DNA from: Rhizodiscina lignyota
Lineage: Eukaryota
Direction: 5' to 3'
Assembly: GCA_010015805.1 (NCBI GenBank)
Contig: ML978124.1
Coordinates: 930,001-994,000 of the forward strand
Length of the DNA stretch: 64,000 bases
Of this stretch, positions 6,204 through 11,914 are shown one piece after another (the first letter of the stretch is position 1; each line of letters opens with the position of its first letter). The position numbers and the translations under genes were made by a program. The notes beneath the pieces are model-generated. The model was not told where the DNA came from and searched no databases. It saw nothing but the letters and a program-made list of their open reading frames with translations.

Positions 6204-9200
6204 ATGGGCAACACACAGTCTAAAGAGCCGTCGGAGGATCTCGACACTTCTCTGAATGGGGATGCCATCTTTGAGAATGTAAGTGGTGTTTTCTTTCTCA
6301 CATGCCTTTCTAGACGATTCACTCGTTTGCTCCGCGGCTCGCCAATGATTAAACACTGGTAAAAGGGCTTATCGCACAAAAAGTATCTGTTGTGGTTCTC
6401 AAAAATCAGTCTGGCTCTTGGGGTGTGCTAGAAACCCCGTGGATGCGACCCCGCCGAGGGTTCGCAGGCTCTTGTTACAGAGCCACCCGCCTACCTCATC
6501 GGCGTCGTGGTTTAAAACAAGCGTACATCATACAATGCCCTACACTGGAGCTTCGAGCAGCCTCTCACCAGCTCGGAGCCAATGGCAGGGGCATACAGGC
6601 AGCGATTTTCCACTGTGTACAATCTTCGTGCCTGGTGGTTGCTCTACTGGTGTGTTTCTTCGCAAACCAAGTCGGGCTGATTGGAGAGAACCTGGAGATA
6701 TGCGAAATGAAGTTTATATAAACTGAAAAGACCTGAGGCACATTAGCCGCGGAGTTTGATTTCACATATGATTTGGCAGCATGACAGCTTAGAGATACAG
6801 ATTGCTAACACCGATTATTCCCTTACAGATCAATGAGCTCCGAGAAGACGCACTTAGACAGGTCTCTGCGGAAGATCCCGGAAGAGACGATGTCGGAACA
6901 GAGATGGATCCCTTAGTGCAAGTCACGAGACACCCAGTCTCCAATCCGTCGAGCACAAGGCCAAGATCAATATCACCACCGCCAACAAAGAGGCGACGCC
7001 TCGGAGCTACAGACTCATATTCGCCGTCGCTAAATCATTCCGCATCGTGGACACCAGACACACACCAATCTGAAGCTGAGGCTTATCGACCTGGTCCAGA
7101 TAAGGTCCGATTTACTGGAGAGCCTCATCGAGGCAGAGTCCATTCTGCCCAAAGTGGCTACACTCAAGATTTACCAACTTCGAGGCGAGGTTCAAGCATC
7201 TCCATAGACGAGAAGCTACCTCTTTCAAGCCCGCCAATCAGGAGCCAATCGAATGGCGGCTACCAAGATCGGCGTCAGGGCACAAACGTGATACATTCAA
7301 ACACGTTCAGCGATCCTCTCAGTGCCCTTGATCGCCACGACCAAGGTAATAACCCTGGTTTCGACTTCTCAAAAGTTCCGAGAGGACCATGGCGCGACAC
7401 TGTAACATTTGATGATCTCACAGACCCTCACATATTTATCACCTCGGAGACCGTCCCTGTCCTTTCCTCGACTGTGAAGCACCTCCGGGCCCTCTTCAAA
7501 AGACAATCGGTGATACCGAAACAGATCAAACTCGACCAAGACGGGTACTATGTGTTTTTCGAAAACAGCACGCAAGGTGTAGATGATTTGAGGAGATGTT
7601 TGGACAACTTTGATAGGAGATTGTTGTTCAATCAGTACGAGATGAGGATGAGATACATGCGAGGACGTCCCAAAACCACCTATCACCCCGGTCTCGATAA
7701 CTCTCCGTACAAAGTTCAATCGAACCCACCACCGGCTACCAAAGATGATCCTTTGCGTAGAGTTTCAGACAGAACCCCACAAATGAGCCCGATAGATTCA
7801 AACAGCAACTCGGTAGGAGCAGGTTTTACCGCTGGCGATCGGTCAAGGCCTGAACCAAATCCTCGTGGGAGATTAGCCAGCTCGTTCAAGCGAATTCCGG
7901 ATACAGGTTCGGATACAGTCTTAGAAGCGACCACAAGCACTATTCAGCAACCTACGACTGCTACAACTCTGGATCAGGAATACGATGTCGATTACAGAAG
8001 GGAGCTACACAACGGCGAAGTACTGCACTTGCCCTCTCAGAATTCCAACCAGGATCTGCCAGACAGAGTACCTGCCAGCATACCGGATGAGACATCGCGA
8101 CTAAAATCCGAAGCTATCAGGCGCCTGTCCATCCCTGATCATATCGGAGTTGAAGAAGGCCAGTCTTCTCCGAGATCTCTCACTCCTTCTGATATATCTT
8201 CGGCAACGGCACGCAAATACGAAAAGGAGTGCCACCGCTGCAAGCAGCCAGACCAGGCACATAATGCTTTCGTGAAGTGTGTGACATGCGTGCGGAGATT
8301 CCATGACGCATGTCGTGTACCTCCGCCTGGACCGAGTGACACTTTGACCACCTGGCAATGCAACCACTGCAAGAAGAAAGGCCGAGAGGTTCCCGTCGTG
8401 CAAGATAAGCGAGTACCTGAAAGCTCGAAAGCGACGCAACCACCTTCTGCACCGTCTTTGACTTTGCCTGAGCGGCTAGCATGGGATCAGTCTGAGGCCG
8501 AAGTGATGAATCTTGGTGAAGGAGAGGCTGAAACAACTGCAGGAGCGGAAGCGGAATTTACGGATGATCAAAGCGCAGCAATGAGTATCTCTGATGGTGT
8601 GTCTAAACAAATTGCGATTCCCAACCCTGTCCCTACAGATCTTACCCCAGCTCCAGCAACAGAGATGAGCGATGCACCCGTGGAGCCGCAAAAGAGCAAT
8701 CCGAAAGAAGTGGACACCGAATTAGGTGAAAACATTTCAAACGTAAACCCTGTTCCTACAGATCTTACACCAGCTCCAGCGACAGAGATGAGCGATGCAC
8801 CTATGAGCTTAGCTACTACACCGGCAACTCCCATGCTACCGGAGCCCATGCCACCGGAGCCGGAGCCATTCACTGATAACGAGATGGCCGACCCGAGGAA
8901 ACGTGGCAGAGCGAAGAAAACAAATATTCCAGTCGTGTCAACACGTAATTTGAATGCAACCCTTGATGGCGCCTCCAGTAGGGAATACGACTTGAGCAGT
9001 CCTTCCATCGATGATGCTACCCTCTTGGTGAATGCATCTTTCGCCATTGCCCAAAAAGAGCTTCCGTCCAGTTCTGGTAGAGGCACATCGAGTTCTCCCA
9101 CAAAGACGTCTACCCTCGGACAGTGCTCGAGTTGTGGAAAGAAGATGTTTCTGTGTAAGGCCGGAACTATTTGCGCTGCTTGCAAGAAGCGACAGGAAGA

Positions 9201-11914
9201 TATTGAAATGCAGGCGAAGATTCAGTCGGAAAAGGCAATAGTTGAGGCAGCCCCATCGATGAATCATCCGCTGCCGCAACAAATCCAGAGTGCGGGCTCA
9301 ACACCGCGTGATTTGCAGCAAGACAAGGGAAACCAGCCTCAGTTTGCTCTTCCTCAGAAACCTGCGGCAGTTTCAGAGACCCCGATGCTGGATTCGCTGG
9401 CGAAAGATGCTCAGAATGCGACTTCAATACTGAATGACGTGCTACAAGACAAGGGCAAGGAAAAACAGTCTCATCAGCCGACCCCCCTTCTCGAGCCTGC
9501 GCAGCGAATACCCAAGCGGATAACAAAGCGAGCTCCCTCGCAGACATCACGATCTACTGTGAAGCTTTCAGAAGCTTCAAAGTACTCAGGAGCTTCGAAG
9601 CCTTCAGAAGCTCCGAGGCCGTCAGAAGTTCTGGAGTCATCAGGAGCTCCGAAGCCGCTGGAAGCCCCAAAGCCTTCAAAAGCTCCGAGGCCGCCAGAAA
9701 CCTCGAAGCCTTCAGAAGCCCCAAAACCTTCGGAAGCCACAAAGCCTCTTGTCGGGTCAGTACTTTCCAAACCTCATCTTGAGCCTGCCGCAGAGATTGT
9801 TGAACCTCCTCCTCGTGATGTGAATCAGCGACAAAACTTCCAAAGTGAAACATTAGAGACTCCCATTGTCGAGACCAGCATGGACTCAACTACAGATCAC
9901 GTACTCTCTCAAACTACTGGCATTATTCCGAGCGGATCTCAGTCATTCAAGCCAACCATTTCCAAGGAAGTGACAGCAGCTGTACCCATCTCAGAGTCTC
10001 ATTCATCGAATGAAGTAGCGAACAGTCCATCAACTACTGTACCAGCTCCAAAGGATCCTATCACACGGTCACCACTGGCGCTTCGTCTAACCAGGAATCC
10101 CGAGGATGTCTTCCAAGGCCGAGTTTCGGGACCTATCCATCAAGCGCTCGCGGCTATGGCAGATAGTGAACTAACGATTGCCTTTCGGATATTAAATGAT
10201 ACACCTGAGGCAAGAGACAACATTCAAACATTCCGGAACTGCTTAGATGCTTTCGCCAGAGCGCAAACAGCCGATGATGAAGCTGACGCTACGCAAGCCG
10301 GTATGCGCACGGCTGAACCGCAGAATCGCGGCAGCAACGCCTCAAACGCCTTGGTAACCGATTCAGATGTGTCCAACTCCAGGCGACCAAAAGAAATTAA
10401 TCACAGGCCCAATCTAAGTGGCCAGGAATCAACACGCTCAACACAGTCTGCGATCAACCAATCAAACGAGTCTGAGAAGATCACCGCCCAAGCCAATGAT
10501 GGCAATGTTGCACAGTCACAGTATGTGGATTCAGACGAAGCCCCAAACCAACGCTTGCCCCGGCACTTTTCTCTCTCACAAGTCTGTGCACTCGCACTTC
10601 TTAGCACTCCAAGCCGAAGACTATCGCATCCCCAAATTTGCAATTGGATTTCCTCACAAAACTTGTTCAAATATAGATCAAGTGACCCTACAAAGTGGAA
10701 GACTAGCATGAGCGCTATTTTAAGCGGGAATGTGAATTTTGAGCGAACCCCTGCGATGCCCGGCGACGACGGTTACGCATTCTATACGTTTGTGAAGGGT
10801 AAGGCGAAGGACTTCAAACACCTCAATCCTAAGGAGGGCCAGGTGGAGGAGGGAGCAACAGCAAGCCAGTCACTTCTTGGCAGCCCTGTGTCAAAGAAGA
10901 CGACCTTAAAATCACCAAAAGAAGCTTCGACAGAACAGAACCACAGGGGTCGAACATCAGAGCTCCGTCGGGATGCAGTAGATTCCAGTTCATCGCCTGT
11001 TCGCCATCGGATCAAGCCCACGCGCAAAACCACCGCTCAAACTACGTCGAGTCGAGTTGAAACACAATTGTTGGAGCGTTCGTCCGATGCAGAAGTCGAA
11101 CAACAGCGCGGTCAAAAGAGACTTCGACGATTCAGTCCTCGTCATGACGATGATGTCGACATGGAGGAAGCGCCGAATTCGGCCGAGCGTGCCTCCAGGC
11201 CAACCGGCAGACAGAATGTCGCATCTCACTACGATGGCTATCCTACAATTGATGAAATGATTGCTCGTCATGTCCCAGTCGAGGACCATCTCTGGAACCT
11301 GTCCGACTCTGATGATGCCTTCAATCCTTTTGAGGAACGCCCTTCCTCTGAAGACGGCGATGACGAGTTGCTCGCGCTTATCGACTCCAATGATGAGAAG
11401 GCTGAGTTCGAGGACAAAGATCTGTTCGCTGTTCGGCCGGAACTTCATCCCGATGTGGTGTTACTCGACTTCGAAGCTAGGAGACAAGAAATCGAAGCGC
11501 GTCCCACTCGCAAGCAGTTGAATGGCCATTTCGATCCTGTGCCTCGAGCCGATGTCCAAGAGAAATACGGAGTGCTGCCTCACCGCGTCCGTGGCAAACA
11601 AAAAGAGATCGAGCTTCCGGTGTTGGAAGACGATGATCTGGGCAACTTGGGAGGCGATGAGGCTGCCCGTCCGCGGAGTGAGCGCTGGAAGGTCGTGAAT
11701 ACGATTGAGGATGCGTTTGAACTGCCTGATGATATGATCAAGTTCACGTACGAAGGGCAGCTGGCCTGGAGAGATGGAACTAGAGTATGAGTGCTCTCTC
11801 TGACTATATTTGACTTCTACTGACCATCTATAACAGGTGAACGGAGAGTTGCCGAGGCCAAAGACTGTGTACAAAGTTGGTCGGGTTGAGGAGTCGCGTA
11901 CACGGTCGAAGTGA
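6204..11914 (+). CDS. Large chromatin-type protein: Set1-associated RRM-like (SET_assoc) domain, PHD finger and forkhead/winged-helix-like domain; no SET domain
   Basis: Exon 1 (6204-6278, MGNTQSKEP...FEN) joins in phase 0 across intron 6279-6828 (GTAAGT...GCTAAC...TACAG) to the 1662-aa ORF. Last intron 11785-11836, stop at 11912-11914. PHIFITSETVPVLSSTVKHL...DQDGYYVFFE...LLFNQYEMRM resembles SET_assoc; CHRC...CVTCVRRFHDAC...WQCNHC is a PHD finger; SLSQVCALAL...LSHPQICNWI...WKTSMSAILS...FER resembles a forkhead domain. Confidence 0.75.
6341..6739 (+). ncRNA. Intron-encoded box C/D (possibly composite C/D-H/ACA) scaRNA-like guide RNA; predicted targets U5 Um41 and U2 Um47
   Basis: Terminal stem GCC/GGC plus a perfect 10-bp outer stem CTCCGCGGCT (6330-6339) / AGCCGCGGAG (6745-6754). 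C box ATGATTA 6345-6351; guide CTGGTAAAAGG 6356-6366; D' CTTA 6368-6371; C' ATGAAGT 6707-6713; guide TAAACTGAAAAGA 6719-6731; D box CTGA 6733-6736. Confidence 0.8.
8623..8802 (+). repeat. Intragenic duplication of ~57 nt (NPVPTDLTPAPATEMSDAP twice)
   Basis: Copies at 8623-8679 and 8746-8802 differ only at synonymous positions. Confidence 0.9.
9562..9747 (+). repeat. Degenerate 18-nt coding tandem repeat (EAPKPS-like hexapeptide, ~10 copies)
   Basis: Recurrent AAGCCTTCAGAAGC(T/C)CC units encoding SEASKYSGASKPSEAPRPSE...PSEAPKPSEATKP. Confidence 0.8.

Follow-up and report, generated by a model that had tools for sequence, protein, structure and literature searches.

Very long introns are the usual home of fungal small nucleolar RNAs (snoRNAs). 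In Neurospora crassa, 2 of the 20 box H/ACA snoRNAs lie in introns and 6 are orphans (PMC2780460), and a conserved, newly found intronic H/ACA snoRNA of the Pezizomycotina is reported by Gao et al. 2021 (PMC8216456). The range of 148-266 nucleotides (nt) holds 90% of the fungal H/ACA snoRNAs, the minimum being 115 nt, and G occupies position 2 in about 80% of the fungal H boxes; 90% of the fungal C/D snoRNAs are 80-135 nt long, and their box C matches RUGAUGA almost perfectly (PMC5824354). Long yeast introns widely carry zipper stems (PMC12350175, PMC2536676), and the definition in the former study requires a total linker of 42-85 nt. Here we describe a locus in a stretch of 64,000 nt (the window) from the fungus Rhizodiscina lignyota (Dothideomycetes, Aulographales; contig ML978124.1, positions 930,001 to 994,000 of the forward strand), where the long first intron of a protein-coding gene is predicted to fold into an extended rod. 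With moderate confidence, the observations below suggest that 6468-6600 of this intron probably encodes an orphan snoRNA of the box H/ACA type, about 133 nt long and positioned at the tip of the zipper-like rod.

The long open frame downstream of the intron is 100% identical to a public protein, the hypothetical protein NA57DRAFT_74134 of R. lignyota, which across the junction (marked by a slash) reads MGNTQSKEPSEDLDTSLNGDAIFEN/INELRE (…AIFEN/INELRE). Because the public protein spans the junction in this way, exon 1 occupies 6204-6278 and exon 2 begins at 6829. The intron starts with GTAAGT, contains TGCTAAC at 6803-6809 and ends with CAG. Intron 2 of this gene measures only about 52 nt, which makes intron 1 about ten times longer.

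An earlier reading of the window, made from its letters alone (the sequence-only reading), had described a hairpin composed of a lower stem, a pocket and an upper stem, with an ACA adjoining it. This hairpin folds as described. Its lower stem pairs 6535-6541 with 6588-6594 and its upper stem, which is closed by the terminal loop AGCCUCUCACCA, pairs 6550-6558 with 6571-6579; both stems have a pair probability of 0.97-0.98 in the partition function of the whole intron. Between them lies an internal loop with 8-9 nt per strand, in which ACACUGGA (6542-6549) is opposite CAAUGGCA (6580-6587). The ACA at 6595-6597 abuts the hairpin and is separated from the upper stem by 15 nt, close to the distance of about 14 nt that had been proposed from the pocket top and within the 14-16 nt by which the target position of an H/ACA pocket lies upstream of H or ACA. 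The unpaired probabilities of the ACA in the intron ensemble are 0.97 for A6595, 0.42 for C6596 and 0.33 for A6597.

Together with the sequence preceding it, this hairpin forms a unit (6468-6600) that consists of a hairpin, a 10-nt hinge, a second hairpin, the ACA and 3 nt, 133 nt in total. The hairpin-hinge-hairpin-tail shape is found in both the minimum free energy (MFE) and the centroid structures of the unit, and it is retained in the MFE structure of the whole intron. The folding energy of the sense strand, -46.5 kcal/mol, is far below that of its shuffled versions (-35.5 +/- 3.2; z -3.42, a value that none of the 200 shuffles reaches), whereas the antisense strand is unexceptional (z -0.40, 58 of 200 shuffles as good). 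The hinge contains two overlapping ANANNA motifs, ACATCA (ACAUCA in the RNA, 6525-6530) and ATACAA (AUACAA, 6530-6535), either of which is a candidate H box, and the unpaired probabilities of 0.54-1.0 place them in a single-stranded hinge, as expected of an H/ACA RNA. The compact 5' hairpin stops directly at ACAUCA. It is present in the MFE and centroid structures of the isolated 133-nt RNA, in the MFE structure of 6411-6600 and in that of the whole intron; the terminal loops of the 5' and 3' hairpins are UACCUCAUC and AGCCUCUCACCA. The best hairpin ending at 6524 is larger, with 82 nt starting from 6443 and an energy of -27.9 kcal/mol. Equally stable hairpins end at 8 of 150 random positions (5.3%), making this stability a modest signal, and the candidate snoRNA could extend further in the 5' direction, for example to a start at 6443.

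The rarity of the 3' hairpin with its ACA was evaluated by scanning both strands of the window (128 kb) for a lower stem of at least 6 base pairs (bp), loop strands of at least 5 nt each, an upper stem of at least 8 bp and a distance of 14-16 nt to an ACA. This geometry occurs at two places, compared with a mean of 0.325 in dinucleotide-shuffled sequence (n = 40), a rate of about 0.0014 per intron strand. The second, at 9560-9614 of the minus strand, belongs to a coding stretch of tandem repeats, lacks an H box and was judged to be a repeat artefact. The H/ACA interpretation is favoured because a very long intron coincides with a rare, strand-specific and canonical H/ACA geometry.

The candidate is enclosed by two further helices, which fold most of the 550-nt intron into a single rod. 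The inner one joins 6394-6450 to 6636-6692 by 47 bp, 41 of them Watson-Crick and 6 G-U, with pair probabilities of 0.95-1.0 in the intron ensemble. Cofolding of its arms gains -35.4 kcal/mol, compared with -5.5 +/- 2.8 for 100 shuffles, none of which is as good (z -10.5). The antisense arms gain only -18.7, so that the sense strand is better by 17 kcal/mol. Thirteen of the pairs are contiguous (6404-6416/6670-6682), and elsewhere bulges break the helix at intervals of a few base pairs. No A-C mismatch was read in its pair list; the six G-U pairs and the lack of A-C mismatches suggest that the pairing is at the level of the sense-strand RNA and is not that of a decayed inverted repeat in the DNA. 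An origin of the structure from a repeat or transposon was considered and rejected, as the window holds no second copy of any part of the intron. The outer stem is a perfect, 100% complementary helix of 10 bp with a probability of 0.97. Its linkers were counted as 51 + 48 = 99 nt, which is just above the 85-nt limit given for yeast.

While the analysis shows the splice junctions, the folds with their statistics, the strand asymmetry and the lack of targets in the rRNA scans given below, the following scheme of expression, protein binding, processing and any effect on splicing is inferred. During synthesis of the intron, Cbf5, Nop10, Gar1 and Nhp2 would assemble on the two hairpins, the H box of the hinge and the ACA, with the snoRNA displayed at the tip of the rod that is formed by the 47-bp helix and the outer 10-bp stem. 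After splicing and debranching, exonucleases would trim the intron to the protected core. The helices of the rod would be part of the precursor and absent from the mature RNA. In the internal loop of the 3' hairpin, a substrate uridine would lie 15 nt ahead of the ACA and be converted there into pseudouridine.

Several observations weigh against the H/ACA interpretation. The compact 5' hairpin has a probability of just 0.35-0.38 in the intron ensemble, because a local hairpin, GGCUCU/AGAGCC, competes with it and reaches 0.60, and in its favoured fold it lacks a guide pocket. Both H-box candidates carry C or U at position 2 instead of the G of most fungal H boxes, and the length of 133 nt, while above the fungal minimum, is below the range that holds most fungal H/ACA snoRNAs. 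The strands of the 3' pocket are partly self-complementary, with unpaired probabilities that drop to 0.26-0.65 at several positions, and the pocket may close by pairing with itself. The thresholds of the geometry scan were fixed post hoc, when the hairpin had already been seen, and looser thresholds give 14, 29 and 75 hits per 128 kb. The true significance is below the raw ratio because of this choice; for a target of 550 nt, the rarity of the geometry clearly remains significant.

The searches for targets, families and relatives point in the same adverse direction. Comparisons with ribosomal RNA (rRNA) used proxies and not the fungus's own genes: eukaryotic ribosomal DNA (rDNA) contaminating bacterial assemblies, found by a scan for the ITS4 primer site and mapped with Rfam. 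The set comprised a fungal small-subunit (SSU) rRNA, 5.8S and the 5' two-thirds of the large-subunit (LSU) rRNA, a plant SSU, 5.8S and LSU, and the 3' part of another eukaryotic LSU. The sequence-only reading had inferred that the RNA may also guide pseudouridylation and had assigned no target; four variants of the pocket, sought as bipartite matches around a uridine, gave none above shuffled guides in the proxy rRNAs, as a fraction of 0.45-0.69 of the shuffled guides reached the observed score. At Rfam gathering thresholds the whole window has 0 matches. Below them, the H/ACA model SNORA79 gives a full-length match to 6469-6600 on the plus strand with 15.4 bits (E 2.3, not significant), the only Rfam match on that stretch, and SNORA21 gives one to 6239-6369 on the minus strand, across the boundary between exon 1 and the intron, with 20.5 bits (E 0.11; gathering score 80). 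Both were treated as noise. A strict pattern of both pocket strands and the ACA had 0 hits in metagenome contigs, and a 19-mer made of the 3' pocket strand, the lower stem and the ACA was found in two such contigs, which are similar over these 19 bases only and lack the hairpin.

Some of these results would be expected if the intron were structured for its own sake, the tip hairpin, the ANANNA motifs and the ACA being coincidental and no stable small RNA being made. This explanation is somewhat unlikely, yet it accounts directly for the long helix, which none of the shuffles equals, and for the high probabilities of both the helix and the outer stem; it agrees with the wide occurrence of zipper stems in long yeast introns (PMC12350175; PMC2536676), and with searches that gave no target, orthologue or family match for a snoRNA. 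An ACA next to a hairpin, moreover, costs only about 1/64 in a sequence that is already selected for hairpins. A rod that serves pairing only, however, has no obvious reason to contain an internal loop of 8-9 nt placed 15 nt from an ACA together with an ANANNA hinge. The 133-nt tip by itself has the canonical shape and a z of -3.4, and the linker sum exceeds the yeast zipper limit (99 nt against 85 nt; PMC12350175). Another RNA might instead be made from the 47-bp duplex, which could be a substrate for an enzyme of the RNase III or Dicer type, yielding small RNAs or releasing the enclosed domain independently of splicing, or could be part of a stable noncoding RNA spanning 6394-6692. The long, mostly Watson-Crick sense helix with its 13 contiguous pairs speaks for such a product, and some yeast snoRNA precursors are flanked by RNase III entry sites. 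We regard it as improbable: the bulges interrupt the helix every few base pairs, no Rfam family matches it, and processing of the duplex can coexist with an H/ACA snoRNA but does not replace it.

The sequence-only reading had gone further than an H/ACA snoRNA and placed the H/ACA-like domain inside a C/D RNA, in a composite architecture like that of the vertebrate small Cajal-body RNAs (scaRNAs) U85, U87, U88 and U89. A box C at 6345-6351 would then act with a box D at 6677-6680 or 6733-6736 and enclose the H/ACA domain. Both AUGAUUA and CUGA do exist, the C box retains its first GA, and the boxes could be joined either by CCAA/UUGG (for the D box at 6677) or by GCC/GGC with the 10-bp stem as its extension (for that at 6733); lengths of 200-300 nt are attained by one C/D family of fungi, Nc_CD_53 (PMC5824354). 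The C-box-like motif, however, has U in place of G at position 6, and in the whole of intron 1 TGATGA (UGAUGA) is absent, the sole approximation being TGATTA at 6346. CUGA occurs at 6677, 6723 and 6733. The copy at 6677-6680 is Watson-Crick paired with 6406-6409 inside the 47-bp helix and has an unpaired probability of 0.0, and the CCAA/UUGG terminal stem has a probability of 0.00; at 6733 the adjacent GCC/GGC stem has only 3 bp and a probability of 0.05. These are thermodynamic predictions of a fold that proteins could remodel. When a C/D frame is defined by UGA plus no more than one mismatch, CUGA, a stem of 4 bp or longer and a distance of 60-400 nt between the boxes, there are 89 comparable frames in 128 kb, or 0.38 expected per 550 nt of one strand, and the C-like and D-like boxes of the intron were judged to be chance motifs. 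No perfect complement of at least 10 nt was found between 6340-6690 and the proxy rRNAs, and gapless guides taken from the region following the C box and from those preceding each of the three D candidates scored within the shuffled range on the same set. The Cajal-body (CAB) box has the consensus UGAG, which is absent from both hairpin loops and from anywhere in 6468-6600, and no small nuclear RNA gene was found in the window at Rfam gathering thresholds. The RNA, with 340-390 nt, would lie outside the fungal C/D range, and to our knowledge composite scaRNAs occur only in animals and none is known in fungi. Because the boxes, the chance level of the frame, the guides and the CAB box all fail to bear it out, the composite architecture was rejected as the main explanation, and we consider it very improbable. 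The same low probability is assigned to a version with a degenerate C box, in which the 47-bp helix would serve as a switch, concealing the D box or making it accessible. A fungal composite of the U85 type would have come as a real surprise, being the first scaRNA-like guide RNA with mixed domains outside animals, and it is not supported.

A 14-nt perfect palindrome, AGUUUAUAUAAACU (6711-6724), lies between AAUGAAG and a CUGA (6703-6727 of the window). The region resembles a guide-less C'/D pair and is probably a chance motif in the right half of the rod.

To return to the H/ACA snoRNA candidate, its domain was a reasonable proposal of the sequence-only reading, and it is the boundaries that differ. 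The 5' half had been drawn as a three-way junction (6412-6485) closed by TGGCTCT/AGAGCCA (6412-6418/6479-6485), and the compact hairpin 6468-6524 takes its place. The proposed closure has a probability of 0.00 in the intron ensemble; forcing it on the isolated segment 6411-6600 raises the energy from -71.9 to -63.8 kcal/mol, a penalty of 8.1 kcal/mol, and the domain so closed would end 39 nt ahead of the H-box candidates. As GGCTCT is present twice in the intron (6413 and 6467), AGAGCC has a closer partner than the copy at 6413. Alternative 5' hairpins with a pocket (for instance 6403-6513, with AAAACA as the H box) were also tried and set aside: they emerge only when the thresholds are loosened, and they carry a penalty of 8.1 kcal/mol. 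The motifs that had been listed were all found again, at or within 1 nt of the positions given for them, and are collected with the other features in Table 1.

Table 1. Features of intron 1 and of the candidate snoRNA, in window coordinates
Feature	Position	Strand	Basis or remark
Intron 1 of host gene	6279..6828	+	550 nt; junctions fixed by public protein
Outer stem, 5' strand CUCCGCGGCU	6330..6339	+	pairs with 6745-6754
C-box-like AUGAUUA	6345..6351	+	judged a chance motif
Long-range helix, left arm	6394..6450	+	cofolding, pair probability
TGGCTCT	6412	+	motif search
GGGGT	6420	+	motif search
ACCCC	6434 and 6448	+	motif search
TGCGACCC	6444	+	motif search
GGGTTCGCA	6458	+	motif search
Compact 5' hairpin	6468..6524	+	nearly fully paired, without guide pocket
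AGAGCCA	6479	+	motif search
Hinge ACAUCAUACA	6525..6534	+	two overlapping ANANNA H-box candidates
3' hairpin	6535..6594	+	folding; stem pair probabilities
ATGCCC and GGGCAT	6535 and 6589	+	motif search
TACACT and AATGGCAG	6541 and 6581	+	motif search
GCTTCGAGC and GCTCGGAGC	6550 and 6571	+	motif search
ACA box (6595-6597) and 3-nt tail GGC	6595..6600	+	motif search, folding
Long-range helix, right arm	6636..6692	+	holds supposed D box CUGA 6677-6680
Outer stem, 3' strand AGCCGCGGAG	6745..6754	+	pairs with 6330-6339

The host gene extends over 6204-11914 of the window and has a product of 1702 amino acids, in which a domain search recognized SET_assoc, PHD and Forkhead domains. The protein begins with MGN, a possible N-myristoylation signal as judged from the sequence. 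Word-based searching of 5.8 billion proteins retrieved only the protein itself and no close homologue. Its gene contains tandem repeats of the SEAPKPSEAP type, and the minus strand of 9540-9760, where they lie, forms very stable hairpins. Two open frames inside intron 1 have no Pfam match.

The scan that yielded the proxy rRNAs showed at least 62 contigs of bacterial assemblies with eukaryotic rDNA (loci L001-L062). Judged by their LSU 5' ends, contigs of two Collinsella assemblies look plant-like, and fungal-looking ones come from several Streptomyces, Nocardia and Pseudonocardia assemblies. At its far end, contig G001:C45 (L063) is not rRNA-like, which suggests that the contig is chimeric.

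If the favoured interpretation is correct, the locus would add an orphan intron-encoded H/ACA snoRNA to the Dothideomycetes, a class for which few H/ACA RNAs have been mapped. As a clean case of a snoRNA presented on the end of a very long helix in an intron, it could also be a model for the coordination of small nucleolar ribonucleoprotein assembly with the splicing of long fungal introns.

The known systems to which the locus can be compared each share a part of its organization. With the vertebrate scaRNAs U85, U87, U88 and U89 it has in common an intronic H/ACA-like unit that lies between C-like and D-like motifs; in intron 1, however, the C box departs from the consensus, the D box lies buried within a helix and the frame is of chance frequency, and the candidate has neither a CAB box nor an rRNA target in the proxy scans. 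The zipper stems of yeast, such as those of Saccharomyces cerevisiae RPS17B and RPL7B, likewise bring together, by long-range pairing, a region that follows the 5' splice site and a region that precedes the branch point; as in R. lignyota, the intron far outsizes its neighbour. The R. lignyota structure is far larger, with nested helices over about 425 nt and a core of 47 bp; its linker sum is above the yeast limit, it encloses a snoRNA-like unit, and it is known here from predicted folds. The intronic H/ACA snoRNAs of the Pezizomycotina, represented by Nc ACA1 and ACA9 of N. crassa and by the conserved RNA of Gao et al. 2021, differ from the candidate in that it is short, has a pocketless 5' hairpin, lacks significant Rfam similarity and is surrounded by the 47-bp helix. 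With them the candidate shares its sense orientation in a spliceosomal intron, the succession of hairpin, hinge, hairpin and ACA, the ANANNA hinge and the internal loop 15 nt from the ACA, as well as the orphan status common to many of these snoRNAs, 6 of the 20 in N. crassa among them.

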